Position numbers and translations under genes: made by a program | Part shown: in pieces, positions 579 to 64,000 of the stretch | How the letters are laid out: each line of letters opens with the position of its first letter | How positions within the stretch are numbered: the stretch's first letter is position 1 | Notes under the pieces: model-generated | What the model was told of the DNA's origin: nothing | The model's input: the letters and a program-made list of their open reading frames with translations, nothing else | The model's database searches: none | Assembly: GCA_964502815.1 (NCBI GenBank) | Contig: CAZCXV010000003.1 | Coordinates: 4,694-68,693 of the forward strand | Reading direction: 5' to 3' | From: an uncultured Gammaproteobacteria bacterium | Lineage (GTDB): Bacteria; Patescibacteriota; Microgenomatia; UBA8517 | Length of the DNA: 64,000 nt

Positions 579-756
579 TATGGCAGAAGAACAATACTAT
601 TCTATTGCAGAGGTCTCCAAGATATTAAAGGTCGCTTATTTGACTGTTTACCGATGGATACAGGCTAAGCACCTTGTTGCTCTGAAAGCAGGCAAACAAT
701 ATAGAATTAAAAAGGAAGATTTAGAGACATTCCTTAGAAGATATAGGCATAAATAA
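562..756 (+). CDS. Excisionase/MerR-like helix-turn-helix DNA-binding protein
   Basis: 64-aa protein. YSIAEVSKILKVAYLTVYRWIQ...KAGKQYRIKKEDLETFL matches the excisionase-family HTH pattern. Confidence 0.6.
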   Translation: MINITNMAEEQYYSIAEVSKILKVAYLTVYRWIQAKHLVALKAGKQYRIKKEDLETFLRRYRHK

Positions 757-757
757 T

Positions 758-1360
758 ATGTATTGCAATAATTGTGGAAAACATAATCCAGAGGACAGTA
801 AATTTTGTAAATACTGTGGGGCTGAAATCGTAAGCGTGTCAGCAGACCATAAAGCCGACAGTCGTGCTCAGTCAGAAGTCAAACCATCAGAAGCAGAGCC
901 TACTGGAAAGAATAAGGCAGGACTAACTGGCTGGTTGGCATTAGTTGGATTGGGCTTGATTGTTGGGGTTTTTATACAAGGATATGGGGTGTTGGAATAT
1001 TTGCCATTATTGTCTGAAGTTTACGAAATTCCAGGGTATTCAACTCTTCTTCAACTTGAGTTCCTTTGTAGCATCATATTTACTGGATTTACTGCATATC
1101 TTCTCTACTTATATCTCAAAAAAAACGAGAAGTTTCCAAAGTACTATTTCGTATTCCTAATCGCATCAATCATTTATGTAATACTTGACCATCTGTTTCT
1201 CGCTTCGTTAAGTGCCCCTACCACAGAACTGCAAAATCTTATCAACGACGGTTTATCAGAAAACATGGCAACAGTTAGTAGAACAGTCATAACTTCCATA
1301 ATTTGGGCTTTGTATATCAAAAAATCAAAACAGGTTAAAGCAACATTTACCAATAAATAA
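758..1360 (+). CDS. Zinc-ribbon domain membrane protein (paralog 1 of 5)
   Basis: N-terminal MYCNNCGKHNPEDSKFCKYCGAEI, i.e. CxxC-x10-CxxC, followed by about 4 hydrophobic helices. Confidence 0.6.
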   Translation: MYCNNCGKHNPEDSKFCKYCGAEIVSVSADHKADSRAQSEVKPSEAEPTGKNKAGLTGWLALVGLGLIVGVFIQGYGVLEYLPLLSEVYEIPGYSTLLQLEFLCSIIFTGFTAYLLYLYLKKNEKFPKYYFVFLIASIIYVILDHLFLASLSAPTTELQNLINDGLSENMATVSRTVITSIIWALYIKKSKQVKATFTNK

Positions 1361-1362
1361 AT

Positions 1363-2049
1363 ATGTACTGTAATAAATGTGGTAAACAAATTGAAGAAGA
1401 TAGCATTTTTTGTCAATTCTGTGGCAACAGGATGGCTGACAATAGCCCAGAGCCACAATCAGAAAAAGCCTCTCAGACAGAAAATGTTTCTAAAAAAACA
1501 GTTAATAAAAGTAAATCTGATTTATTGTGGGATAAATTCGCAGAGGTTTATGATGCCAAGGACGACGAGCGAGAAAAATTTAATCAATTATCCTCAGAGT
1601 ACATTTGGGATTTAATTGAACGATTGTACACAAACGCATTTGAAACGTTTATACAGGAGAAAAAAAGCGAGTTAAATTCTCAACCATATAAGGCAATCGA
1701 GGCTTTGAAAAATCTGTATTTATATTCTGTTCTTGGCGGATATAAGTTATGGATTGCAGAAGCCTTATTGAAAGATAGGCAACTAGAAAAGTTTAAGCCT
1801 TTTGACATAGATAAATTTGTAGAAGAATGGAAAGCTAATGATTTCCAAAAAGTAATGAAGAGTATTTCTGATGAAATGAGTGTTTGTATGACGAGGTATC
1901 TTGAACACAGAATAAGTAATTTTCTGGAAAACTCACCTTCAATAAAAGACATACCAAATTCCACAATGGAAGAATTGAAAAGCTCAATAACTTTTCAGAT
2001 TATAAATGGTTACATTGCAGGAGAAGTAGAAGCAAAATTTAGAAAATAA
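1363..2049 (+). CDS. Zinc-ribbon domain protein (paralog 2), soluble C-terminal domain
   Basis: N-terminal MYCNKCGKQIEEDSIFCQFCGNRM. The start is 3 nt after the previous stop. Confidence 0.6.
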   Translation: MYCNKCGKQIEEDSIFCQFCGNRMADNSPEPQSEKASQTENVSKKTVNKSKSDLLWDKFAEVYDAKDDEREKFNQLSSEYIWDLIERLYTNAFETFIQEKKSELNSQPYKAIEALKNLYLYSVLGGYKLWIAEALLKDRQLEKFKPFDIDKFVEEWKANDFQKVMKSISDEMSVCMTRYLEHRISNFLENSPSIKDIPNSTMEELKSSITFQIINGYIAGEVEAKFRK

Positions 2050-2050
2050 T

Positions 2051-2587
2051 ATGATTTGTAATAACTGCCAAACAGAAATACCAGATAACGCAAAGTTCTG
2101 TAATAAATGTGGACAAAAAACAGACGATGCGAATAGGCCTATCTCTAATCCGAAAAAGAATGGGAAATCTATACTAACGGGTGTGGTTTCTGTTATCGTA
2201 TTTTTATTGGCATTTGGTGTGGTTCGCTACCTCACCCAGGAAGTTATTTCACCTTCAGGAAGTAGTACCTCAAAGGCAGAACTTATTAGTCAGACCGTCA
2301 AAGAAGTTAAAGCCAGTATGTCATTACCAAGTCAAGTAGATGAAGCAACAACATTAGTTGATATTACGGCAGAGTTAAACGCTATTCGTTATCACTATGT
2401 TCTTTCAGGTCTTGATACGAATAACTTATCAAACGACTATTTGAAAACCTATTTAGGTACAAGTATTTGTCAAAACAAGGACACTAAAGCACTTCTTAAT
2501 CAAGATATTAATATGGAATATTCATATTCAGTCAAAAGCTCAACCAAAAAATACTTTATAAGTTTTACGAAAACAGATTGTAACTAA
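2051..2587 (+). CDS. Zinc-ribbon domain protein (paralog 3), single TM plus extracytoplasmic domain
   Basis: N-terminal MICNNCQTEIPDNAKFCNKCGQKT, with a TM segment VVSVIVFLLAFGVV. Confidence 0.6.
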   Translation: MICNNCQTEIPDNAKFCNKCGQKTDDANRPISNPKKNGKSILTGVVSVIVFLLAFGVVRYLTQEVISPSGSSTSKAELISQTVKEVKASMSLPSQVDEATTLVDITAELNAIRYHYVLSGLDTNNLSNDYLKTYLGTSICQNKDTKALLNQDINMEYSYSVKSSTKKYFISFTKTDCN

Positions 2588-2596
2588 ATAACTCTT

Positions 2597-2977
2597 ATGG
2601 ATTGTAATAATTGCCAGAACACAAACAGTAAAGATGCAAAGTTTTGCGTACATTGTGGCTCTGAACTTTCAAAAGGCAAAATTGAGGTTGAGGAAGGCTC
2701 AGTTGATAGATATTTTGCAGAACAAAAAGCAAATTTTATTGAAGAAGCTAAAAGACTCGCTGATGGTGAGATGAAACAAGGTGTTGTTTGGTTTGTTATT
2801 GCATTAGTAATAACTTTTGGAAGTTATCTTTTTGCATCCGAAGGTGGAACTTATTACGTTTTTTGGGGTGCGATGATTTACGGCATTTACAGATTAATCC
2901 GAGGCTTTTGGTACAAACTTAATCCAAAATCGCTTCTCAACAAAGCAGAGGAAGAAGCAAAAAAAGAAAAACAATAA
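2597..2977 (+). CDS. Zinc-ribbon domain protein (paralog 4), 2 TM
   Basis: N-terminal MDCNNCQNTNSKDAKFCVHCGSEL. Confidence 0.6.
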   Translation: MDCNNCQNTNSKDAKFCVHCGSELSKGKIEVEEGSVDRYFAEQKANFIEEAKRLADGEMKQGVVWFVIALVITFGSYLFASEGGTYYVFWGAMIYGIYRLIRGFWYKLNPKSLLNKAEEEAKKEKQ

Positions 2978-2978
2978 T

Positions 2979-4298
2979 ATGTATTGTAAAAAATGCGGTA
3001 AGGAAAATCCTGAAAGAAGCAAGTTCTGTCAGCATTGTGGAATACAGTTTAACGAACGAACATCTTCAGCCAATACTGCCAATGAGAGTAGTTCAGTAAA
3101 TGAATACATAGCCGTAAACAACCCTCCATATCCCTACGTTATTTCAATATGGAAACTTATAATAATGTGTGTCTTTACTTTCGGTTTTTATGAAATCTAC
3201 TGGTTTTATAGGCAATGGAAATCCTTCAATACAGTTAATAATTTGAAACACGGAAGTTCTACTCTTTGGGTTTACTCACTCTTTGCTCCTCTATCCTCAT
3301 ATTCATTATTCAAACACATTTCAGGTAAGGTTAAGGAAACAAACAACGACAAAGGGATAGAAGCAGGTGGTCTGGCAATTGTATACTTTTTTCTCACACG
3401 ATTTTGGCTGGGGTTCATACCTCTAATTTCTGTCCAAAATAAAATTAATCATTATTGGGAAAAGAAGTACGGCAATAAGCTTGTTAGGTCTAATTTTGGG
3501 GTTTGGAACTGGATTGTTGTTGTTGCGGTAGCATTAGTGCTCATTTATGCTATCTCTTCCGAAGAAACCACCACTAGCACAACATCAGATACCTCCACAA
3601 GCACATCAGTTGTCGAAAAATATAATCAAGAAGAGATTGTCTCATCTGTAGTAAATATTTTCTGTCCGAGTATTGTTGAAGGAGAAGAAGGAACTGGAGG
3701 CTCTGGAACGATAATTACCAAAGAAGGAATAATTCTTACCAATTCTCATATTATTCCTCAAGATGAGAAATATATTAACGTTGATGAAAAAGGTTGTTTA
3801 GTTATACTACCAAATTCAAGCACAGGACAACCTGAAGAAATGTATTGGGCAACTCCAATAGTTCTTCCTGAAATTAGCGACACATACGACTTAGCATATT
3901 TATCTATTTATGCCGCCTATTACGACGAGGAAAGTAAGGAATATAAAGGAAGTTATCCTCGCACCTTTCCTGCTTTTGATGACAGTAGTAGATGTGTTGA
4001 CGAAAACGTAAAACTTGGAGAAAAAGTGACCATATTCGGATACCCTTCTCTAAGTGGGGGTTATTCTTTAACTGTAACAGACGGACTTGTTAGTAGCTTC
4101 CCTGGTGAAGGTCTTATTGTTACATCTGCGAAAATTAGCGAAGGCAACTCTGGTGGTTTGGCTGTAGATGCAAAAGGTTGTATGTTGGGCATTCCTTCTA
4201 TGATTAGCTATGACGAAACTGAAAGTTTGGGTGTAATTATTTCATCAGATTTAATTGTTAAATTTTCAGATGAAGTCTCAAAATATTTAGAACAATGA
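2979..4298 (+). CDS. Zinc-ribbon / DUF4234-like TM / trypsin-like serine protease fusion (paralog 5)
   Basis: N-terminal MYCKKCGKENPERSKFCQHCGIQF. A YEIYWFYRQW TM region and an S/T-rich linker follow. The C-terminal domain carries GNSGGLAVDAKGCMLGIPS, close to the chymotrypsin-fold GDSGGP motif. Confidence 0.6.
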   Translation: MYCKKCGKENPERSKFCQHCGIQFNERTSSANTANESSSVNEYIAVNNPPYPYVISIWKLIIMCVFTFGFYEIYWFYRQWKSFNTVNNLKHGSSTLWVYSLFAPLSSYSLFKHISGKVKETNNDKGIEAGGLAIVYFFLTRFWLGFIPLISVQNKINHYWEKKYGNKLVRSNFGVWNWIVVVAVALVLIYAISSEETTTSTTSDTSTSTSVVEKYNQEEIVSSVVNIFCPSIVEGEEGTGGSGTIITKEGIILTNSHIIPQDEKYINVDEKGCLVILPNSSTGQPEEMYWATPIVLPEISDTYDLAYLSIYAAYYDEESKEYKGSYPRTFPAFDDSSRCVDENVKLGEKVTIFGYPSLSGGYSLTVTDGLVSSFPGEGLIVTSAKISEGNSGGLAVDAKGCMLGIPSMISYDETESLGVIISSDLIVKFSDEVSKYLEQ

Positions 4299-5767
4299 AA
4301 GCAATAATTTTAGCCAGAGTATCAGATAAAAAACAGGACTCCAACGAAGCTCAAATTCTTCGGGTTTCAGATTACGTTAAAAACAAACAACTAATTGTTT
4401 GGAAAACGTACGAAATAGAAGAAAGCTCAACAAAAGGTGATAGAGAAAAATTTCAAGCTGTAGTTGAAGAAATTCAACAAGCCAACGAGCCTATTGCCCT
4501 TGTTGTAGATACCGTAGATAGACTTCAAAGAAGCTTTAAGGAGTCCGTTCAACTGGACGACCTACGTAAAGCAGGCAAACTCGAAATTCATTTTTACAGA
4601 GAAAGTTTAGTCATTAACCAAAACTCGAATAGCTCTGACCTACTTCGATGGGATATGGCTGTAATGTTTGCTAGAAGTTATGTTCTTCAATTAAGCGATA
4701 ACGTCAAAAGAAAACAAGAGCAAATGCTTAGAAGTGGTATTTACCCAAGCCAACCTCCTTATGGTTACAAGCGGGTTCCTGTTGCAAAAGACAAAACCGA
4801 AATAGTTATTGACGAGTATGCTTCAAAAATTGTCCAAAAAGCCTACGAATGGTACGCAACGAGTAGTTTTTCAATGGAATTATTACGAGAGAAACTAAAA
4901 AAGGAATATGGCGTTAATTGGTCAAAAGGTTTTATAGATAAGGTACTGAAAAACGACTTTTATTACGGTCTTATGACTTGGAATAAAGGGAAATCAAACG
5001 AGAAAACATACACGCACAATTATCCTCATATAATCGAGAAACCTTTGTTCGACCAAGTACAGAAAATAAAAGCAGGATTTAACAAGAAACCTTTTAAGTA
5101 CGCAGGTAAACCTTATATCTACCGAGGATTACTGAGATGTGGTCATTGTGGACTAGCTGTGACCCCAGAAAAGCACAAAGGGCACGTCTATTACCATTGT
5201 ACTCAATACAACGGCAAACACGGGGCTGAATGGCTACGAGAAGAAACAATAACAGAACAAATAGGTAATGTATTTAAAAAGCTACAAGTCCCTGATTACA
5301 TATTAGAGCAGATAGTAACTTCCCTACAGGTTAGTCACGAAGGCAAGGCAGATTTTCGAGAAACCCAATACAAGCAACTTACAGAAGAACATGAGGTATA
5401 TACCAAAAGATTAGAAAAAATCTACATCGATAGACTGGACGGGCGTATTACTGACAATGAGTATGACAAGTTCTATCAGTCATTTCGTGACAAGATATCT
5501 GAAATTGATACCCGACTGGCAATACTCCAAGAAGCAGACGACAACTACTACATCACGGCTAGATACCTGCTAGAACTGGCAAATCGGGCTTATGAGCTTT
5601 TCAAAAGTTCAGAAGTTGAAGAAAGAAGGCGGTTAATTAAGCTCGTGCTATCGAACCTTAGAGTAGAAGACAAAATAGTGCGATTTGATGCGATAAAACC
5701 ATTCGACACAATCTTAAATTATGCCGATAGTCAACTATGGCTCCCCGAACAGGATTTGAACCTGTGA
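4295..5767 (+). CDS. Large serine recombinase (resolvase/invertase N-domain, recombinase domain, C-terminal zinc ribbon)
   Basis: MKAIILARVSDKKQ carries the catalytic Ser region. CGHCG...YYHC forms the zinc ribbon. At 490 aa it is the size of phage-type serine integrases. The ATGA start overlaps the upstream gene. Confidence 0.85.
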   Translation: MKAIILARVSDKKQDSNEAQILRVSDYVKNKQLIVWKTYEIEESSTKGDREKFQAVVEEIQQANEPIALVVDTVDRLQRSFKESVQLDDLRKAGKLEIHFYRESLVINQNSNSSDLLRWDMAVMFARSYVLQLSDNVKRKQEQMLRSGIYPSQPPYGYKRVPVAKDKTEIVIDEYASKIVQKAYEWYATSSFSMELLREKLKKEYGVNWSKGFIDKVLKNDFYYGLMTWNKGKSNEKTYTHNYPHIIEKPLFDQVQKIKAGFNKKPFKYAGKPYIYRGLLRCGHCGLAVTPEKHKGHVYYHCTQYNGKHGAEWLREETITEQIGNVFKKLQVPDYILEQIVTSLQVSHEGKADFRETQYKQLTEEHEVYTKRLEKIYIDRLDGRITDNEYDKFYQSFRDKISEIDTRLAILQEADDNYYITARYLLELANRAYELFKSSEVEERRRLIKLVLSNLRVEDKIVRFDAIKPFDTILNYADSQLWLPEQDLNL

Positions 5768-5812: not shown

Positions 5813-5961
5813 TTATTGTCACCGACAAACTATGCTTATCGGGGACTGTTGATAACAGGCTTATTATAGCAAACGGGATTGTGACTTGGAAGGCTAATTG
5901 GTCTTGCAGATTGTAGGATAATTGACATAAATGTCTGTTTTTTGCTAAGCTTAGTAAAATA

Positions 5962-6498
5962 ATGAAAATAAAATCCTTTGTTTTTCTTTTAACTGTTTTT
6001 CTCCTTTCTTTTTCTGCAACCTCTGTTCTTGCTCAAGACGCAACTCCCAAGGTAGGCAAAAGACTTGGAGAGCTTAAAATGAAGGCTTGCCAGTCACACG
6101 AGGAATCTTTGCAACAAAGAATGACTAAACTAACCAATATGACGACAAATATGCAAAACAAGTTTGCAGCCCACGCTCAGAGAGTAGAAGATTATTACAC
6201 AGACAAAGTTATTTCTGCTGGCAAAACTGTTGCCAATTATGATCAGTTAGTGGCTGATGTCGAAAACAAAAACACTAAAGTTTCTGAAAGTCTGGCTCAA
6301 GCCCAAACAACCGCCAATAACTTTAGTTGTGAGGCAGAAAATCCAAAACAGGTTTTAACCTCCTTTAGAAAAGATATGCAAAGCACCAAAATGGCTCTGA
6401 AAGAATATCGAATAGCAATTAAAAATCTAATTGTTGCAGTTAGGGGAGTTGCAAAGACTTCCGAAAGTCCAACAGCAACTAGTGTGCCAGCAGAATAA
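5962..6498 (+). CDS. Secreted hypothetical protein (signal peptide, coiled-coil-like)
   Basis: MKIKSFVFLLTVFLLSFSATSVLAQ is a signal peptide. There is no catalytic motif. Confidence 0.45.
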   Translation: MKIKSFVFLLTVFLLSFSATSVLAQDATPKVGKRLGELKMKACQSHEESLQQRMTKLTNMTTNMQNKFAAHAQRVEDYYTDKVISAGKTVANYDQLVADVENKNTKVSESLAQAQTTANNFSCEAENPKQVLTSFRKDMQSTKMALKEYRIAIKNLIVAVRGVAKTSESPTATSVPAE

Positions 6499-10719: not shown

Positions 10720-11065
10720 GTTTAAAAAATAGGTTCAAAATAGTTCATCATATTCCTGACGTAACTCCCCTTGGTTGGATCTCTCAAGGAACTCAGTCAC
10801 AGAAATCGCTTTCTCAGGTTTACGAATTTGATTAGTTACGCTAGTTGATGTTCCCGCATCTCCATCAGTAATCCAAGGAATTGAGGTGGTATAGAATCCT
10901 TGGAAATTGGTGAGTTATTGGGATGGACAATAAATGCTGATTCAGTTTCTAGGACATCTTCACTCATGAATATTATTATAGCCTAAAATACCAAAATAGC
11001 TTTTGGCTAATATAAAGACTTTGTCCATCAAGTGGGCAGGCTATTGTGTAATTTGATTTGCCATA

Positions 11066-11905
11066 TTATGGCTTTTTCAGTAAATGCAAATCTTTAGAGT
11101 TTTTTGGAAGAATTACTTTTTTCCCTGTTGTTTGTTCAATTTCTTTTCTGGCATTTCCTGCAATTGAGCCACCCTTAATTGCAACTTTTCTGTTCTCATT
11201 AAAACTTTCTGGTTTGAGAGATTTTGATATTTCAGTAGTTGAAGTTTCAGCAAGCATATTGAGAACCAATTCAAGGTTTGTCATGTTGTCTCTTAAGTTT
11301 TCTTTTTTCAAATTTTTGTAGTTTTTGTATTCTCTAGTTTTCATTCCAGCCCAGGCAAAAGTAATATCGTCAGTAAGGATTGCAAATTCGCCTGAAGTAT
11401 TAACACCCCTTTCTTCCCATTCATCTGTCAAATCTTTTCTGATATCAATGCTTTTTAGTCTTAAATTGACCCATTCCTTGGAGTAGCCCTTCTTTAGGTA
11501 ATAGTTCATTGCTCTTTGGATGGCTTTTTCTGGATCATCTACTTCTTCGACTCTTTCATAGCCAACGCGAGCCAGCCACAACTTAAATGGTTCTGCATTA
11601 GGAGAGGGGATAGATTGAATTATTCTAAACATTGTTTCTGTGTCTGCTGCATCGGTTAGGTAATATTTACCATCTGAAGATTGCATTTTCAGTTGTACGA
11701 TTTTTTCGTACGACTGACTACCTTCATTTTTCAGTTTTGTTTTTAGATCTGACCAATATCTTTTAGGAACACTGCTTCCAGAAAGAATGCCTATAACATC
11801 AATCACAGAAAAATACCATTCTTCTTTGATATGGTCCCAATATCTTCTTATCTTGTTTCCTTCAAACAAAACAATTTTTGCCGAATCTTTATGTTTACTA
11901 TCCAT
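11066..11905 (-). CDS. Bro-N / DinD-like DNA-damage-inducible family protein (paralog 1)
   Basis: The N-terminal region FEGNKIRRYWDHIKEEWYFSVIDVIGIL is Bro-N-like. The central block FRIIQSIPSPNAEPFKLWLARVGYERVEE recurs in the 41179..42018 paralog. The C-terminal region is similar to the dinD gene at 63005. Confidence 0.65.
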   Translation of the reverse strand: MDSKHKDSAKIVLFEGNKIRRYWDHIKEEWYFSVIDVIGILSGSSVPKRYWSDLKTKLKNEGSQSYEKIVQLKMQSSDGKYYLTDAADTETMFRIIQSIPSPNAEPFKLWLARVGYERVEEVDDPEKAIQRAMNYYLKKGYSKEWVNLRLKSIDIRKDLTDEWEERGVNTSGEFAILTDDITFAWAGMKTREYKNYKNLKKENLRDNMTNLELVLNMLAETSTTEISKSLKPESFNENRKVAIKGGSIAGNARKEIEQTTGKKVILPKNSKDLHLLKKP

Positions 11906-12119
11906 ATTTTTAAAGTTGAATCTTAAGTTATTAATCTACAACATTATTTTACATTTGTCAAGCTATCGAAGATTAGTATATACTTCTCAACATTTTCTTA
12001 CTTATGTGGCAGGTTTAATTTTATTTATTTTCTTTAGATTATCATTTAAGGATAAGTAAAAATCATCTTTGGGGATGAATGATTTTCTTTTGGGAAGTAA
12101 GACACGGCGAAAAGCCTAA

Positions 12120-12563
12120 AAGACAATAATCCTCAATACACATCTTGTCGGCACGGTCGATGAAGGCGCAGGCAGGCGTGCGATTGAAGAAGTTAGCATT
12201 GCTGAAGCCAAAGAATATATTGAGGAAGTAAAGCTTTACTTGGTTACCTACGGAGGCGACCTTCTGTATGTATTTGCCCTGTATGACCATATTATTTCTT
12301 CCAAAAAACCAGTGGATATTGTTGCCGAGGGCGTATGTATGTCGGCCGGGGTGATGATCTTGCAGGTTGCAAGAAGAAGGTATGCGACTCCCACTCTTTA
12401 TTTATGGTTCACCCATCAATCAATATTGTCGAAGAGAAGTCCTACCAGAAAATGTCTTTCTGTCTATAAGGCCTGCAGATTTGGCATGTATGGCTTAATT
12501 GATGAAGTTATAAATTTTCCCACTCTTTCAAAAGATCTACCCACAAGCTTTTCAAAAAACTAA
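12120..12563 (+). pseudogene. ClpP-family serine peptidase remnant (N-terminally truncated, frameshifted)
   Basis: KLYLVTYGGDLLYVFALYDHI...VDIVAEGVCMSAGVMIL...RRRYATPTLYLWFTHQS...YGLIDEVI aligns block-wise to ClpP (IYLYINSPGG..., the Ser motif, MIHQP, GLVDSI). There is no start Met and a frame break near 12430. Local GC is elevated. Confidence 0.5.
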
Positions 12564-37286: not shown

Positions 37287-37970
37287 GTGATCTATTTAGT
37301 ATCATTGCTCTGCCCCATGAATAAGCAAAGCTTGGCATTGTTGACTCACAAAGCAAAAGAACTTATAAAGATTGCGGTTCCTCTGACAGTTGGGGTGTTT
37401 ATTTTGGCAATTTCAATTTTTTCTTCATCTAAAGTAAAGTATGTTTTTGGTCAATCTACCACTCCAGCCCCAATTTTAGGACAAAAAGCCGAAGTTAACT
37501 ATCAGCTTCCCTTTGCGGGAAAAATAGAGCCAGACAGTTTTCTTTGGCCAGTAAAAGCGACCCGTGACAAAGTTTGGGTAATTGTGAGTATTGATCCTGT
37601 TAAGAAAGCGCGGGTATTGATTCTTTTGGCCAATAAAAGAATAGTTTTTGCCCAAAACTTAATGAATAGGGATAAATCAGAACTTTCGGTGTCAACTTTA
37701 ACAAAAGCAGAAAAGTATTTGGAAGAAGCAGTAAGCCTCGAGAAAGATGCCAGAAAGAAGGGAAGTGACACAAAGGCACTCCTGCCAGAAATTGCCATGT
37801 CTATCCTAAAGCACAGACAGCTTTTGGAGGAAATACTTCTTGCAGCTCCCGAGAATGCGAAACCAGTTATAGTAAAGACACTTGATGTCAACAAAAGACT
37901 TTTTAGTGATATAAAGATGTCCCTAAACTCCCAGGGCCTTGAAACTCCAGCTAGCCCGTTTGAAGAGTGA
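37287..37970 (+). CDS. Hypothetical secreted/membrane-anchored protein
   Basis: N-terminal hydrophobic segment. Confidence 0.3.
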   Translation: MIYLVSLLCPMNKQSLALLTHKAKELIKIAVPLTVGVFILAISIFSSSKVKYVFGQSTTPAPILGQKAEVNYQLPFAGKIEPDSFLWPVKATRDKVWVIVSIDPVKKARVLILLANKRIVFAQNLMNRDKSELSVSTLTKAEKYLEEAVSLEKDARKKGSDTKALLPEIAMSILKHRQLLEEILLAAPENAKPVIVKTLDVNKRLFSDIKMSLNSQGLETPASPFEE

Positions 37971-52945: not shown

Positions 52946-55900
52946 ATGACCGATAATACAAAAAACGGCAATGGCCACAAAAATGGCAAAAACGGAAAAC
53001 CTACTAAAATTGTTAAAGTAGATTTTAATATTTGGAAAATAGCTCTAACAGTTTTAACCTTTCTTTTTATGGCGCCACTGTTTTTGTCTGTTTTTAAAGA
53101 CAAGTTAGATCAAAACAAAATTGAGCTTTCGCAGGCTTTAGCAGACATCAAAGAACAAAAAATTGAAAAGGTAGTTGTTGAAGAAAATAAGCTTCTTTTG
53201 ACTTATAAAGATGGCACAAATAAAGTTACATCTAAAGAAAACAGCATCTCGTTTCCAGAACTTATGGATAGATCTGGTATAAACTTAGCTGACGTTAAGT
53301 ATGACACTAATGACCAATCTCTCCTCAAGGCTTTTGCAGATTTAGTTAGTGTAGTTTTACCCATTGGTCTAATGGCAGTTCTTCTTTATTACTTTCTAAG
53401 GGCTCAGAATAAAGGTGCTTCAGATATTTTTTCCTTTGGCAGGAGCAAAGCCAAGTTGTTTGCTAAAGGTAAGCAAGATGTCAAGTTTGAAGACGTTGCA
53501 GGAATTGATGAAGCCAAAAGAGAACTAACCGAAATCGTTGATTTTTTGAAAAATCCTGCAAAGTACAAAAAAATTGGCGCCAGAACACCAAAAGGAGTTT
53601 TATTGGTTGGTCCCAGTGGAACTGGAAAGTGTATAACTGGAGAATCTATGGTGTGGACAAATAAGGGATTAATGGAGATCAAAGATATACCAAGATACTA
53701 TTATGTAGACAAAAATAATAATCGTACTTATGGCGCTTCGCTAGCAGGCTTTGATTTAGATAAGATCAAAAATAAAAATAGTTTTGCTTCTCATTGGTAT
53801 GATCTTGGTATTCAAAAAACAATAAAAATAAGATCTTCACAAGGTTACAACCTAGAAGGAACTCCCGAACATCCTGTTATATCTATGACTAATGATGGTG
53901 TTTTAAAATATAAAAAATTAAGCGAAGTTGAAAAAGGAGATTATTTAGCAATTCAATATGGAAGAAATATTTTTGGTGATTTAAATATGGTTGACCAAGA
54001 TACAGCCTATTTAATGGGACTTTTAACTGGTGATGGCAACATGAGTATTTCAAGTAGAGTTGGAATAACAAGTATTGACCCCGAAATAGTTAAATTTTTT
54101 AGAACTTATGTAAATAAACGATATCCTGATTCTGCAATTACCCCTAATGGTCAAAGTTATTTAATCTCAAACTGGGAATTTAAGAAATATTTGTACCAAT
54201 TGGGAATGAGCTATTTGCTTTCTTTTGATAAGGTTGTTCCTCCAACTATACTGCAGTCCCCAAAAAATATTCAAGTAGCTTTCTTACAAGGATTATTTGA
54301 CACCGATGCTTCAATTGAAAAAAGACATGGAGCCTTCGAATATGCCACGGTTAGCGAAAAGATGGCAAAGCAGGTGCAAATGATGATGCTTAATTTGGGA
54401 ATAATTGCTAGCTTGAATCAAAAAGGAAAGGTGGAAGATGGACATTACAGACCAGTTTATAGAATTACGATGACTGGAAGTGGACTTACTGCTTTTGCAA
54501 AAGAAGTTGGTTTCAAATTAACTAGAAAGAAAGAATTATTGTCTAAAAATGTTTCTAAAATGGGGCGTGTCAATACTAATATCGATGTAATTCCTGGTGT
54601 TGGTCGTCTAATTGAAGAGTCATGGAGGGAATTATCTAATAAAAAATTAAGTACAGAAAAATTGTCTAGAACAATAGATAAAGTTAGAAAAAGAAATAGG
54701 ATTTCTAGACAAACCCTCTCGGATTATTTGATTTATTCAAAATCTGTAAGTGACAATGTATTACATTATGAATTTATATATAGTCTGCTGAAATCTAATT
54801 TGTTCTTTTCTGAAGTTGTAGAAAAAACAAATAGTGAGAATCGTGTTTATGATTTCACAGTTCCAAAAACTCATTCCTTTATTTCAAATGGTTTTATTTC
54901 TCACAATACATTGCTTGCAAGAGCACTAGCCGGAGAAGCAGGTGTACCATTCTTTTCCATGGCAGGGAGTGAATTTATGGAGGTACTTGTAGGTGTGGGT
55001 GCATCCCGCGTGAGGGATTTATTTTCCCAAGCAAAAGCTTCGGCACCTTCGATTATTTTTATAGATGAGATTGATGCTATAGGTAGGCAGCGTGGTGGAA
55101 GAAATTTCATGGGAGGACATGACGAAAGAGAACAGACTTTAAACCAAATATTAGTTGAGCTGGATGGTTTTACGCCAAATGATCAAGTTCTAGTTCTTGC
55201 TAGCACTAACCGTGGAGATGTTTTGGATCCGGCACTACTTCGCCCTGGTAGATTTGATCGAAGAGTTATGCTTGATATGCCAGACAAAGAAGGTAGAGGA
55301 GAAATCTTAAAAATCCACGCTAGGGGCAAGAAATTTTCCGACAGTGTTAATTGGGGAAGAATTGCCGATAGGACAGTAGGTTTTTCTGGAGCTGATCTTG
55401 AAAATATGCTTAACGAAGCAGCAATTGCAGCAGCTAGACACGACAAAGAAGCAATTGAAATGAATGATATTGAAGAGGCGGCAACTAAAGTAAAACTAGG
55501 GCCAGCCAGAAAAAGACTCCAGAGCAAGGAAGACAGAACGATAACAGCAGCCCATGAAGCGGGTCATGCCATTGTCACCCATTTCCTTCCCAAGATGGAT
55601 CCGGTTCACAGAATCTCAATTGTTGCTAGGGGAATGAGTTTAGGACATACTTTAATTCCTCCTGCTGCAGACAGGTCTCATGAAACTAGGGAGAGATTTA
55701 TCCAACAGCTTGCAGCTATGCTTGGAGGAAGGGCTGCAGAAGAAGTGGTCTTTAATGAGATGACCTCTGGAGCCTCTAATGATATTGAATTGGCAACTAG
55801 GCTAGTCAGAGCAATGGTTGAAGAATATGGTATGAGTTCTCTGGGACCTATTAATTGGGGATTACAATCAAGCTATGGTGATTTTGGAAATGTTAACTAT

Positions 55901-56101
55901 ACGGAAAGTTCAAACATTTCCCAGAAAATGCAGGAAAAAGTTGATCTGGAAGTGGCCAAATTAATGGAAACTGCGCACCAAAAAGCTTTGACACTTGTCA
56001 AAAAGAACAGAAAACTTTTAGACAAAGTAACAGCTGCTTTATTAGAAAAAGAAACCATAGACCGAGACGAGTTTGAAAAAATTGTGGGGAAGAAAAAATA
56101 A
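52946..56101 (+). CDS. ftsH: ATP-dependent zinc metalloprotease FtsH, interrupted by an in-frame intein in the Walker A loop
   Basis: N-terminal TM helices. GPSGTGK| is followed by the intein, and the extein resumes |TLLARALAGEAGVPFF. The second region of homology, the HEAGH zinc site and the C-terminal helical domain are present. The extein is about 625 aa. Confidence 0.9.
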   Translation: MTDNTKNGNGHKNGKNGKPTKIVKVDFNIWKIALTVLTFLFMAPLFLSVFKDKLDQNKIELSQALADIKEQKIEKVVVEENKLLLTYKDGTNKVTSKENSISFPELMDRSGINLADVKYDTNDQSLLKAFADLVSVVLPIGLMAVLLYYFLRAQNKGASDIFSFGRSKAKLFAKGKQDVKFEDVAGIDEAKRELTEIVDFLKNPAKYKKIGARTPKGVLLVGPSGTGKCITGESMVWTNKGLMEIKDIPRYYYVDKNNNRTYGASLAGFDLDKIKNKNSFASHWYDLGIQKTIKIRSSQGYNLEGTPEHPVISMTNDGVLKYKKLSEVEKGDYLAIQYGRNIFGDLNMVDQDTAYLMGLLTGDGNMSISSRVGITSIDPEIVKFFRTYVNKRYPDSAITPNGQSYLISNWEFKKYLYQLGMSYLLSFDKVVPPTILQSPKNIQVAFLQGLFDTDASIEKRHGAFEYATVSEKMAKQVQMMMLNLGIIASLNQKGKVEDGHYRPVYRITMTGSGLTAFAKEVGFKLTRKKELLSKNVSKMGRVNTNIDVIPGVGRLIEESWRELSNKKLSTEKLSRTIDKVRKRNRISRQTLSDYLIYSKSVSDNVLHYEFIYSLLKSNLFFSEVVEKTNSENRVYDFTVPKTHSFISNGFISHNTLLARALAGEAGVPFFSMAGSEFMEVLVGVGASRVRDLFSQAKASAPSIIFIDEIDAIGRQRGGRNFMGGHDEREQTLNQILVELDGFTPNDQVLVLASTNRGDVLDPALLRPGRFDRRVMLDMPDKEGRGEILKIHARGKKFSDSVNWGRIADRTVGFSGADLENMLNEAAIAAARHDKEAIEMNDIEEAATKVKLGPARKRLQSKEDRTITAAHEAGHAIVTHFLPKMDPVHRISIVARGMSLGHTLIPPAADRSHETRERFIQQLAAMLGGRAAEEVVFNEMTSGASNDIELATRLVRAMVEEYGMSSLGPINWGLQSSYGDFGNVNYTESSNISQKMQEKVDLEVAKLMETAHQKALTLVKKNRKLLDKVTAALLEKETIDRDEFEKIVGKKK
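53630..54907 (+). other. Intein (426 aa) with LAGLIDADG homing-endonuclease domain
   Basis: Block A CITGESMVWT with Cys1. Block B GTPEHPV. The two LAGLIDADG motifs are YLMGLLTGDGNM and FLQGLFDTDAS. The terminal block is VYDFTV...FISHN followed by a +1 Thr. Confidence 0.8.
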
Positions 56102-62170: not shown

Positions 62171-62370
62171 ATTTAGCCAACCCACAATTTTTGTATGTAA
62201 TTTTAGTTCTTCCAGGGCTTTTTGGCCTAACACTAACAGGAGAAGGATTATATCGGTGTGTGCATGAGGAATACAGCGGAATAATAAGTATTATCTTTGG
62301 AGTTATATTTTTAGTAGGAGTGATCTTTGCCTATCTTTTCTTTTCCACTTATTTAGGAACTAAGGTTTGA
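62167..62370 (+). CDS. Small membrane protein
   Basis: Two hydrophobic helices. The start overlaps the fic stop. Confidence 0.3.
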   Translation: MNLANPQFLYVILVLPGLFGLTLTGEGLYRCVHEEYSGIISIIFGVIFLVGVIFAYLFFSTYLGTKV

Positions 62371-62427
62371 GAAGGTTTTACCTCTATTCTACTCACAACT
62401 GCACCAGGTAGGAACTAAACACTTCCT

Positions 62428-62613
62428 GTGGTGATCTATATTTTAAGGGGTACCTGTCATTATGACACTGAAACAGACTCGCTTTCTGTTAGTGTTAAAA
62501 ATCTACCAAAAAGTACTAGACTCCGTTATGTTAATGATGAAATTGCTGTTTATCTTACCCCTAGCTACGAGGTAAAAGGTATATTTATAGAATCTTCCAG
62601 GCTAACTTTTTAA
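62428..62613 (+). CDS. DUF2283-like small protein
   Basis: YDTETDSLSVSV...NDEIAVYLTPSYEVKGIFIESS resembles the YDxExDalYI...GIEIL pattern. Confidence 0.35.
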   Translation: MVIYILRGTCHYDTETDSLSVSVKNLPKSTRLRYVNDEIAVYLTPSYEVKGIFIESSRLTF

Positions 62614-62698
62614 GTATTTCAACTATTTCAGGAAAGTAAAAATTCGGTATTCCTTTTAAGTATTTCAACTATTTCAGGAAAGTAAAAATTTGGTATTC
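62607..62698. repeat. Tandem direct repeat, 2 x 46 bp (2 mismatches)
   Basis: AAGTATTTCAACTATTTCAGGAAAGTAAAAATT[C/T]GGTATTCC occurs at 62612 and again at 62658. Confidence 0.8.
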
Positions 62699-62843
62699 CT
62701 TGAACTCTTCTTTTTCCATCTATAAAAAGTGCTAAGGTTTCTTGGTAGGGAATGTTAATCACAAATGCGGTTGATGCAACTGCGCACCCCAACCCGTCTT
62801 CTTGAGCTACAGGCTTTCGCGATTCTGAATGAACCGTTTTCAT
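62628..62843 (-). CDS. Hypothetical protein whose C-terminus is encoded by the 46-bp tandem repeat
   Basis: GLGCAVASTAFVINIPYQ suggests a possible Cys-peptidase-like start. The 3' end runs through both repeat copies, so the ORF may be disrupted. Confidence 0.3.
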   Translation of the reverse strand: MKTVHSESRKPVAQEDGLGCAVASTAFVINIPYQETLALFIDGKRRVQGIPNFYFPEIVEILKRNTEFLLS

Positions 62844-62884
62844 GCTTTGATTATATATCTATTGTTAACCAATTAGATTAAAAA

Positions 62885-62940
62885 ACAAGTTCTACAATCG
62901 AAGAAAGTGAGAGTGCCAAGCTTCGCTTATCAGGTGGAGC
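62885..62940. repeat. Direct repeat copy 1 (45 bp perfect plus an 11-bp TCAGGTGGAGC tail)
   Basis: ACAAGTTCTACAATCGAAGAAAGTGAGAGTGCCAAGCTTCGCTTA is identical to 63895..63939. Confidence 0.85.
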
Positions 62941-63004
62941 TTGATAAACAACTAATATTTGAAAAAATTGTCTTCAATTTATCCTCGCAGTACCATTTTC
63001 GGTA

Positions 63005-63895
63005 TTGTTAATATGGTACACTCGTTGTATTATCTTTATTATGCAAAATAACTCAACTGAGCTTCAAGGAAGTTTGGAATTAATTAAGAAAACAATAGAA
63101 AGTTTGGAATATTGGTCTGCTAGAGACTTGATGTCTCATCTAGGCTATTCAACATGGGAAAGTTTTAGAACAGCTATTACTCGTGCACAGGAATCTTGCC
63201 AGCAAGCAGGACAATTAGTTGAGGACCATTTTCGTGACGTCACGAAAATGGTTGTATTAGGTTCAGGTAGTCAACGAGCAATAGAAGATTTACTTTTAAC
63301 TCGATATGCATGTTATTTGATTGCACAAAACGGTGATCCCCGTAAACCGCAGATTGCGGCTGCTCAAAATTATTTTGCAATCCAAACACGAAGACAGGAA
63401 ATATGGGAACAAAGAACTGTTGAAAACAAGCGCTTGGAAGAAAGAGATAAGCTACGAGATACAGAAAAGAAAATCGAAAGGACAGTCTATCAACGAGGAA
63501 TAACCCAAAGCATCGAGTTTGCAACTTTCAAAAATAGACATATAGAAGCTCTTTATGGTGGTATTAATACACCTGACCTAAAAAGAAAGCGGGGAATTCC
63601 AAAAGGTAGAGCTCTAGCCGATTTTGATACAGATGTAGAACTTAAAGCAAAGAATTTTGCTCTAGGGATGACAGATCATAACATTCGAACAAACAACTTG
63701 GTTGGAAGAGATAGACTTGAAAGAGAGGTTGTTGCCAACAGTTCTGCCACTAGAGATGCATTGCTGGCGCGTGGCATTATTCCAGAGAAATTGAAACCTG
63801 AGGAAGATGTCAAAAAGATAGAAAGACGCCGCGCAAAAGAGCAAAAGGCAATAGAGGCTGATCTAAATCAAGCCTTAAATAAACTCGCAAAATAA
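63005..63895 (+). CDS. dinD: DNA-damage-inducible protein D homolog
   Basis: YWSARDLMSHLGY and RYACYLIAQNGDPRKPQIAAAQNYFAIQTRRQE are near-identical to the blocks in E. coli DinD as I recall them. Confidence 0.85.
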   Translation: MLIWYTRCIIFIMQNNSTELQGSLELIKKTIESLEYWSARDLMSHLGYSTWESFRTAITRAQESCQQAGQLVEDHFRDVTKMVVLGSGSQRAIEDLLLTRYACYLIAQNGDPRKPQIAAAQNYFAIQTRRQEIWEQRTVENKRLEERDKLRDTEKKIERTVYQRGITQSIEFATFKNRHIEALYGGINTPDLKRKRGIPKGRALADFDTDVELKAKNFALGMTDHNIRTNNLVGRDRLEREVVANSSATRDALLARGIIPEKLKPEEDVKKIERRRAKEQKAIEADLNQALNKLAK

Positions 63896-63960
63896 CAAGT
63901 TCTACAATCGAAGAAAGTGAGAGTGCCAAGCTTCGCTTAACTTTGTCCATCAGGTGGAGC
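63895..63960. repeat. Direct repeat copy 2 (45 bp, then a 10-bp insert ACTTTGTCCA, then TCAGGTGGAGC)
   Basis: It begins at the dinD stop codon and matches 62885..62940. Confidence 0.85.
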
Positions 63961-64000
63961 ACAAAATGATGGTAGGGTATAATTGCTCAAGAATATGAAA

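Follow-up and report, generated by a model that had tools for sequence, protein, structure and literature searches.

The DNA analysed here is a stretch of 64,000 nucleotides (nt), referred to as the window, from an uncultured groundwater bacterium of the GTDB lineage Bacteria; Patescibacteriota; Microgenomatia; UBA8517, deposited as an uncultured Gammaproteobacteria bacterium (NCBI GenBank assembly GCA_964502815.1, contig CAZCXV010000003.1, positions 4,694 to 68,693 of the forward strand). Near its right end lies a dinD gene bracketed by two direct repeats, the left one named R and the right one R', which contain a short boundary element named E. The first-pass annotation of the sequence had described this gene as a cassette-like insertion. 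Around it, from left to right, the window carries recF, a Fic gene, a gene of 67 amino acids (aa), a 61-aa open reading frame (ORF), the junction of a 46-nt tandem duplication and a truncated minus-strand gene, followed by R, dinD, R' and the start of a DNA ligase gene. Contigs and loci used for comparison are given L numbers. The features of the locus, in positions of the window, are:

62608–62699, plus strand: tandem duplication of 46 nt (one mismatch), lying at the rearrangement junction on the left side of the islet; spanned by an independent megahit k127 contig (L008)

62628–62843, minus strand: truncated form, 71 aa, of a gene found in full length (141 aa) in strain L003

62880–62940, plus strand: left repeat R, delimited by alignment with the E copies of relatives; its parts are AAAAAAC, AAGTTCTA (62887–62894), a 25-nt insert CAATCGAAGAAAGTGAGAGTGCCAA (62895–62919), a 10-mer GCTTCGCTTA (62920–62929) and TCAGGTGGAGC (62930–62940)

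62941–63040, plus strand: 5' region of the dinD module, with a promoter-like site (TTGTTA at 63005–63010, a 17-nt spacer and TATTAT at 63028–63033) found by a consensus scan

63041–63895, plus strand: dinD, 284 aa with an N-terminal Bro-N domain, scoring 309 bits against the NF008573 cut-off of 242

63225–63252, no strand assigned: perfect 28-bp palindrome with half-sites ACCATTTTCGTGAC and GTCACGAAAATGGT, inside the dinD coding sequence, where it encodes DHFRDVTKMV

63890–63960, plus strand: right repeat R', matching R over the first 50 nt and continuing with ACTTTGTCCA (63940–63949) and TCAGGTGGAGC (63950–63960)

63995–64000, plus strand: start of an ATP-dependent DNA ligase gene, the conserved right flank (gene 1228–2946 on L001/L016, with DNA_ligase_A_N/M/C domains)

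The 45-mer ACAAGTTCTACAATCGAAGAAAGTGAGAGTGCCAAGCTTCGCTTA occurs in two exact copies in the window (62885–62929 and 63895–63939, both on the plus strand), with zero copies expected from 100 shuffles. A repeat finder extended the match by 5 nt to the left, giving 50 nt (62880–62929 against 63890–63939) at 98% identity. The sole mismatch is A62883 against T63893, and this T makes the dinD stop codon TAA (63893–63895), at the last base of which the right 45-mer copy begins. Both copies are followed by TCAGGTGGAGC, which in the right copy is preceded by the additional 10-nt ACTTTGTCCA. The spacing of R and R' is 1010 bp, and 50 nt plus 11 nt are shared between them. The exact copies and their positions, the start of the second copy at the stop codon, the common downstream sequence and the 10-bp insert had all been given correctly by the first-pass annotation, to which the leftward extension adds 5 nt.

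An identical dinD protein in the same arrangement was found on contigs from five assemblies or samples: a megahit k127 contig (L001), a SPAdes NODE contig (L002), an IDBA-style scaffold (L003), a JGI contig (L004) and a k=31 Logan contig (L005). Because five independent metagenome assemblies agree in the arrangement, the repeat is not considered to be an assembly artefact. A length of 45–50 nt does fall within the k-mer range of assemblers, and the k=31 contig L005, alone among the five, breaks inside the repeats, where it both starts and ends; an unmerged k-mer overlap, a collapsed tandem array or another assembly or scaffolding error is nevertheless extremely improbable, as the four longer contigs, made by different assemblers from different samples, read through both R and R' into unique flanks.

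No third copy of the 45-mer was found in the window and a further 10 kb of the same contig (about 75 kb of the genome). The 22-mer core of the repeat, AAGTGAGAGTGCCAAGCTTCGC, gave one locus in a scan of GTDB (one genome each for 185,579 species) and one in the JGI metagenome collection, and both matches (L006 and L007) correspond to a single place in Candidatus Woesebacteria GW2011_GWA1_39_8. In IMG/VR, three scans in all, with this core and with E and repeat patterns, found nothing. A phage or plasmid attP as the counterpart of the repeat was rejected on these negative scans, together with the 13 matches to an 18-mer core, which have unrelated flanks and a number close to that estimated for chance. 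These counts bear on whether the 45-mer could be drawn from a high-copy intergenic family (REP, BIME or MITE-like) that flanks dinD by coincidence. Such a family would agree with the recurrence of the E motif in several intergenic regions and in both orientations. It is quite improbable with two copies in about 75 kb, a single related locus in each of the GTDB and JGI scans, none in IMG/VR and no further convincing copy when about 210 kb of related sequence was searched with an nhmmer profile of E. In the about 75 kb and the collections scanned, two copies and one related locus elsewhere were found, not the dozens of unrelated copies that the first-pass annotation had named as the mark of a REP-like element.

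Alignment of R, R' and the flanks of relatives gave E as an element of about 32 nt, consisting of AAGTTCTA, a 10-mer and TYAGGTGGAGC (TCAGGTGGAGC in the window), with the palindrome TCCAYC-W-GRTGGA. At another dinD locus, L030, the dinD stop codon is directly followed by E in the form AATAAGTTCTAGCTTTGCTTATTAGGTGGAGC (parts AATAAGTTCTA, GCTTTGCTTA and TTAGGTGGAGC), which is R minus the 25-nt insert. In a second form, E2, the 10-mer is ACTTTGTCCA; an intact E2 stands left of the 141-aa gene in L003 (163–191), and another on the minus strand of L012 (2054–2084), inside the equivalent variable region. L043 has a weak E-like copy at a distance of about 500 nt from a homolog of the 141-aa gene. Apart from this weak one, the convincing copies in the approximately 210 kb are found at the dinD flanks, beside the 141-aa gene, in the variable region of L012 and beside a second Bro-N gene, and the profile search yielded no others. 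E therefore goes with dinD and with islet boundaries. The copy beside the second Bro-N gene is:

11018–11035, plus strand: degenerate right half of E2, ACTTTGTCCATCAAGTGG, matching at 17 of 18 positions with 0 expected; 3' of the second Bro-N gene

This motif had been placed at 11012..11029, beside a DinD/Bro-N paralog, by the first-pass annotation; the motif is real, the coordinates are those given here, and the neighbour (11066–11905, minus strand) has the Bro-N domain with a DinD match that stays below threshold (24.5 bits against the cut-off of 242). No direct repeats were found flanking this second Bro-N gene. It matches phrog_15286 at 4e-117 and sits in a gene-poor stretch (10720–12510) that is possibly another small islet.

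By its sequence, R' reads as a hybrid, in which R is followed through GCTTCGCTTA and then continued by the right half of the E2 form. The repeat combines a boundary motif that recurs elsewhere with an insert able to form a hairpin, and is no plain duplicate of a target. The 25-nt insert pairs with the 10-mer of R, and the 10-nt ends of R (CAAGTTCTAC and GTGGAGCTTG) pair at 8 of 10 positions as DNA. As plus-strand RNA, R folds with -19.5 kcal/mol (z = -2.98), including several G-U pairs that turn into mismatches on the other strand. The minus-strand RNA fold and the single-stranded DNA folds are unremarkable (DNA z = -0.98 for R and +0.20 for R'), and these values speak against a single-stranded DNA hairpin as the nature of the repeat.

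No tRNA, tmRNA or known RNA family was found at or near the repeats using ARAGORN and Rfam 15 at the gathering threshold, and Rfam at a permissive E-value gave only chance-level matches (E of at least 2). A tRNA origin of E was discarded, as between 131 and 146 of 500 shuffles scored equally well against five tRNAs. No intrinsic terminator was predicted across 62300–64000, and a reverse-strand sigma-54 promoter (TGGCAC...) was dropped on inspection of the sequence by eye, since its spacing and -12 element do not fit. Between R' and the ligase gene, a ten-codon mini-ORF (MMVGYNCSRI, 63966–63998) is preceded by the Shine–Dalgarno-like AGGTGGAG of R'; the mini-ORF ends in a TGA that overlaps the start codon of the ligase gene at 63995 (ATGA), which may point to a coupled leader peptide or be due to chance.

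The stretch between the 67-aa gene and the ligase gene is a variable islet. In L012 (assembly GCA_964356685.1), the left flank (recF, Fic and 67-aa genes) and the right flank (ligase, 452-aa, MamF and Pth genes) are syntenic, and between the 67-aa and ligase genes there are instead a 109-aa gene, an S51 peptidase gene, a 323-aa gene and a radical-SAM/His_Phos gene. Neither dinD nor R is present upstream of the ligase gene in L012, and both are likewise absent there in L015. The ligase flank is syntenic in both loci, and the ligase has its best-named relatives in Microgenomates and Woesebacteria.

To the right of the 46-nt duplication the window matches L003 with its 141-aa gene, and to the left of it the two are unrelated; the duplication cuts the gene down to 71 aa. 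In L042, homologs of this gene adjoin Replic_Relax and TraG/DUF87-type genes, and because of these relaxase-like and TraG-like neighbours the islet looks like the debris of a larger mobile element. Strains L001 and L003/L004 were compared over a stretch of about 1190 nt that begins 273 nt before the dinD ATG and closes with R'; one single-nucleotide polymorphism is their only difference there. Starting at 63962, 2 nt beyond R', about 16% of positions differ, and L002 is a mosaic of both. Since the divergence sets in at this point, the right end of R' is the edge of a recently shared block. L002 and L004 both start at 62864, 16 nt to the left of R, which hints at an alternative left flank in these samples.

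The 46-nt duplication shows that slippage or duplication happens in this islet, and the repeat starts within 3–5 nt of the dinD stop codon. Both points would suit a purely local origin, in which no mobility is involved and R is what a deletion left of a second, tandem dinD 3' end, or of a different gene sharing that 3' element, or in which R and R' were homogenized by conversion. The similarity of R and R' ends sharply at 62880/63890, however, with no trace of dinD coding sequence to the left of R, and such an origin accounts neither for the different loci of dinD and its outlier conservation nor for the dinD repeats of different, local sequence in two other lineages, described next. It is accordingly regarded as doubtful.

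The assembly that provided L012 has dinD on another contig (L030), between an RF-1-type gene and a zf_Tbcl_2 gene. The two dinD genes share 90% identity in DNA and 94% in protein, whereas six syntenic core genes of the same pair share 69–79% in DNA and 70–88% in protein; high conservation combined with a different location makes dinD look recently transferred or mobile. Ungapped homology between the window and L030 covers 62971–63904 at 89%. Gapped homology runs from TTAAAC/TTGATAAAC (about 62941) to the GGAGC that ends E, and thus gives a unit of about 1 kb composed of promoter, dinD and E, the left end of which is directly preceded in the window by the end of R. No orthologue of the L030 site was found in the window or the loci examined (tblastn of the L030 neighbours, for which the control worked). 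A tRNA-3'-end-like remnant was seen at the left edge of the dinD unit in L030 (about 4868–4895; 1 of 500 shuffles as good), and a tRNA-Asn-like one directly upstream of the ligase promoter on the minus strand of L012 (about 5940–5975; 0 of 500). No intact tRNA lies at either remnant, and the remnants are not the repeat.

In lineages more distant from the window, dinD is accompanied by other neighbours: a Fic gene and an APH-like gene (L033), DUF5679 and PNP_UDP_1 genes (L035–L039), a peptide deformylase gene (L040) and a restriction-modification methylase gene with a helix-turn-helix gene (L041). In L033, direct repeats of 43 nt (86% identity, 1545 bp apart), with the E-like left half AAGTTCGAACATCGTCCAC, bracket dinD and the convergent APH-like gene. 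In L035 (Collierbacteria), repeats of about 75 nt (about 80% identity, 1800 bp apart) lie around dinD and PNP_UDP_1; they are made up of the final 18 nt of the preceding DUF5679 gene and of its terminator hairpin, the stems of which differ and yet both pair. The left copy ends 66–100 nt upstream of the dinD ATG in the window, L033 and L035 alike. A survey of direct repeats in the window and eight loci (about 140 kb), at a distance of up to 3 kb, a length of at least 40 nt and an identity of at least 78%, found these three dinD-flanking pairs as the only dispersed non-coding ones. A 48-nt near-tandem repeat (92% identity, 58-nt spacing, rich in CTAGTAG/TTAGTAG) was also noticed in L033 at 3352–3457, just upstream of the Fic gene that precedes dinD and about 450 nt downstream of a tRNA-Ser gene.

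We interpret R and R' as att-like left and right junction copies of E, resulting from the recombinational insertion of the dinD module of about 1 kb at an E site, and assign a probability of about 0.5 to this interpretation. The module would comprise its own promoter, dinD and the 3' element E beginning at the stop codon. It would have entered, or been rearranged within, the variable islet just upstream of the ATP-dependent ligase gene through recombination of the module's E with one that the site already had. The route may have been site-specific, with an enzyme provided in trans, or a Campbell-type single crossover of a circular copy through short homology; in either case E-derived direct repeats would be left on both sides, as with attL/attR. 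R has the form expected of a circle junction (E, then the module 5' end TTGATAAAC), and R' that of a hybrid between R and a chromosomal E2. The predicted junction of the circle is ...AACTCGCAAAATAACAAGTTCTACAATCGAAGAAAGTGAGAGTGCCAAGCTTCGCTTATCAGGTGGAGCTTGATAAACAAC... and that of the empty site is ...CCAATTAGATTAAAAAACAAGTTCTACAATCGAAGAAAGTGAGAGTGCCAAGCTTCGCTTAACTTTGTCCATCAGGTGGAGCACAAAATGATGG....

We infer the recombination event, the circular intermediate and the catalyst from this arrangement, and several results weigh against the proposal. The gene and Pfam lists, which cover about 7 kb on the left and about 10 kb on the right, contain no integrase, transposase, recombinase or relaxase. A clean empty site, with a single repeat copy by the ligase gene, was not found among the relatives compared, no search for its predicted junction being made: the candidates reached through the ligase (L012 and L015) are too diverged and the region is otherwise different, and the homologs reached through the 141-aa protein sit in other contexts (L042 and L043). 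The strain-identical block does not stop at R; it runs to the left at least as far as 62654 and includes the fragment of the 141-aa gene, and the repeats are therefore described as bracketing one module inside a larger islet. Long direct repeats are lacking at L030 and L041 (L040 is cut too near the gene to tell). E is not significantly tRNA-like and fails the core consensus of integron attC sites. A single reciprocal crossover between plain E1 and plain E2 also fails to give R', which has the 25-nt insert and both 10-mers; either both parents already had the 45-nt core, or gene conversion homogenized the copies. The cassette-like insertion of the first-pass annotation is partly supported: the variable islet, the relocated and conserved dinD and the direct repeats in L033 and L035 bear it out, and the missing recombinase and empty site are on the negative side.

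The protein encoded by dinD matches the NCBIfam equivalog NF008573 over residues 7–275 and Pfam Bro-N (PF02498) at 3e-09. It also matches the phage family phrog_8036 at 1.4e-76, and homologs of 44–55% identity are present in IMG/VR contigs; no solved structure in the PDB was detectable by sequence as a relative. In the promoter, the inverted arms GTACCAT (62990–62996) and ATGGTAC (63013–63019) bracket the -35 hexamer, and the consensus ACCATTTTCGGTATTGNTAATATGGT is kept upstream of dinD in five lineages (the window, L030, L033, L040 and L041). This (GT)ACCAT...ATGGT(AC) pair is a better candidate than the 45-mer for the damage-response operator of dinD. The half-site ACCATTTTCG of the 28-bp palindrome recurs at the dinD promoter. 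Perfect arms of 14–16 nt are found in four of eight other dinD copies from the candidate phyla radiation and from phages (L030, L035, L044 and L047); the palindrome is kept even in phage copies with 44–50% protein identity and degraded in L033 and L046. In E. coli dinD, compared with that of the window, the outer arms are kept and 23 identical bases follow just downstream. This pattern of conservation suggests that the coding sequence harbours a DNA or RNA site.

The main rival of the att-like reading is regulatory. R and R' would be copies of a duplicated cis element in front of dinD and the ligase gene, acting as an operator for LexA or another damage regulator or as a plus-strand RNA hairpin, and would owe their identity to recent copying or gene conversion. 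The only other place of the 22-mer core in the GTDB and JGI scans is the divergent lexA-uvrB spacer of GW2011_GWA1_39_8, where three AGTSSCAAGCTTYGCTYW units stand just upstream of the uvrB ribosome-binding site (L006 3700–3790, L007 7755–7845). Between the middle unit and the repeat of the window, 24 nt are identical and about 38 nt homologous, with the common core GCCAAGCTTCGC. The near-palindromic GCSAAGCTTYGC occurs upstream of dinD, of the ligase gene and, next to lexA, of uvrB, and a non-random match at such places suggests an operator or RNA element of the damage response. A third, weaker copy of the core lies upstream of nrdR and a ribonucleotide reductase gene. It is an 18-mer, AATGCCAAGCTTTGCTTA (37322–37339, minus strand), with 2 mismatches and 0.04 copies expected by chance, at the 5' end of an ORF (37287–37970); on the plus strand it is followed by TTGACT, a 17-nt spacer and TATAAA, and nrdR and the class II ribonucleotide reductase gene lie about 850 nt downstream. 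The plus-strand RNA fold of R, with no equivalent in the minus strand or in DNA, fits as well.

Fifty identical bases are, however, far more than an operator needs, and the copies stand 25–85 nt upstream of the -35 regions instead of over the promoters. The conserved inverted repeat of the dinD promoter already offers an operator-like site in the five lineages; the ligase genes of the relatives L012 and L015 lack the element, and the E copies in L003, in L012 and at 11018 are not upstream of repair genes. A regulatory role may hold for the unit of 25–35 nt and yet leaves the duplication unexplained, and as an account of the whole repeat pair it is possible, on balance unlikely. The data are less well fitted by a local duplication, a generic repeat family or an artefact than by either the att-like or the regulatory reading. 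These two may also be compatible, with the 25–35-nt unit serving regulation and its duplication recording recombination.

Two further features of the window were recorded. The FtsH gene (52946–56101, 1051 aa) contains an intein with a LAGLIDADG homing endonuclease domain, as shown by the Pfam domains listed for the identical gene on L008. At 752–3040, four consecutive genes start with a paralogous N-terminal segment of 68 nt (68–75% identical, TGT/TGC-rich), which is Zn-ribbon-like.

To our knowledge, few mobile-element systems have been described for the tiny genomes of Patescibacteria, and the gain and loss of accessory genes are poorly documented in them. The locus provides a concrete case, in which a dinD module of about 1 kb has moved between sites in related organisms, is far more conserved than the core genome and is repeatedly bracketed by long direct repeats though no recombinase is nearby. 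If E proves to be a recombination site, it would be a new cassette boundary with which other mobile genes could be found in these lineages; if the repeat core instead works in the damage response, as an operator or RNA element in common with lexA-uvrB, it would point to part of an SOS-type regulon in Woesebacteria. The result is one for specialists and no surprise; it is a genuine, if modest, case of accessory-gene swapping.

Among known systems, the insertion of a transposon or insertion sequence produces a target-site duplication of 2–15 bp and involves terminal inverted repeats and a transposase. This class was rejected: the repeat measures 50–61 nt, the ends of the insert (TTGATAAAC... and ...CTCGCAAAAT) are not inverted repeats, and no transposase is present. 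The first-pass annotation had entertained a target-site duplication; one of the transposase type is unlikely for these reasons.

In islets and prophages of the integrase type, attL and attR duplicate a tRNA or the 3' end of a gene, as for e14 or phage 21 in icd and for tRNA-linked islands. The dinD locus resembles them in that direct repeats of tens of bases flank an accessory segment and that a relative has other genes at the orthologous locus. The repeat of L035 likewise consists of the 3' end of an upstream gene and its terminator, with an orphan copy downstream, and tRNA-3'-like remnants occur in L030 and L012. Unlike these islets, the segment has no integrase in or near it, spans about 1 kb with one gene and has a repeat that, in the window, is not significantly tRNA-like and starts at the stop codon of the cargo gene, not of a host gene.

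Phage morons and accessory genes of the Bro-N/DinD type are similar in the phrog_8036 match, in having homologs on viral contigs (often near the contig ends) and in their own promoter. The window differs from them in being a chromosomal islet without other phage genes and with long direct repeats around it. The dinD gene of E. coli is a LexA-regulated SOS gene, the product of which modulates RecA filaments, and it belongs to the same protein family (NF008573). It has a LexA box (CTGT-N8-ACAG) upstream, no E-type flanking repeats in the stretch examined and only part of the internal palindrome.

Integron cassettes are comparable as modules of one gene with an apparently structured, imperfectly palindromic element of about 60 nt starting at the stop codon, for which a circle is predicted by the model; same-orientation elements also separate accessory genes in L003 (E2, the 141-aa gene, R, dinD and R'). 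An identity with integron attC was rejected, because the core sites RYYYAAC/GTTRRRY are absent from the ends of E, which read GTTCTAC on the left and GGAGCTTG on the right. The only RYYYAAC match in the element is GCTTAAC (63934–63940), without a GTTRRRY partner downstream. The repeats are identical over 50 nt, in contrast to the 7-bp core that attC sites have in common. Neither IntI nor attI is present in the annotated flanks, dinD has its own promoter and the neighbouring cassette is inverted.

The pdif (Xer) modules of Acinetobacter plasmids are also small, have no recombinase of their own and use short recombination sites, pdif modules being moved by host enzymes in trans. E lacks the 11-6-11 XerC/XerD architecture, and its dinD-flanking copies are direct, not inverted. 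On these comparisons we class the locus as a repeat-bounded accessory-gene module with an undescribed boundary motif, nearest in function to small islets with att repeats and to integron cassettes. A more speculative proposal, to which we give little weight, is an undescribed cassette system of Microgenomates and Woesebacteria without an integrase of its own, in which modules of one gene (dinD, the plasmid-linked 141-aa gene and perhaps other Bro-N genes) bounded by a structured E of about 32–60 nt, starting at the stop codon, would leave as circles, and a recombinase supplied in trans or the recombination machinery of the host would insert them again at other E sites. The 25-nt hairpin insert, common to R and the lexA-uvrB spacer, could in addition link the expression or the mobility of the module to DNA damage. 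Such a system would be analogous in function to integron cassettes and pdif modules, with an unrelated site.

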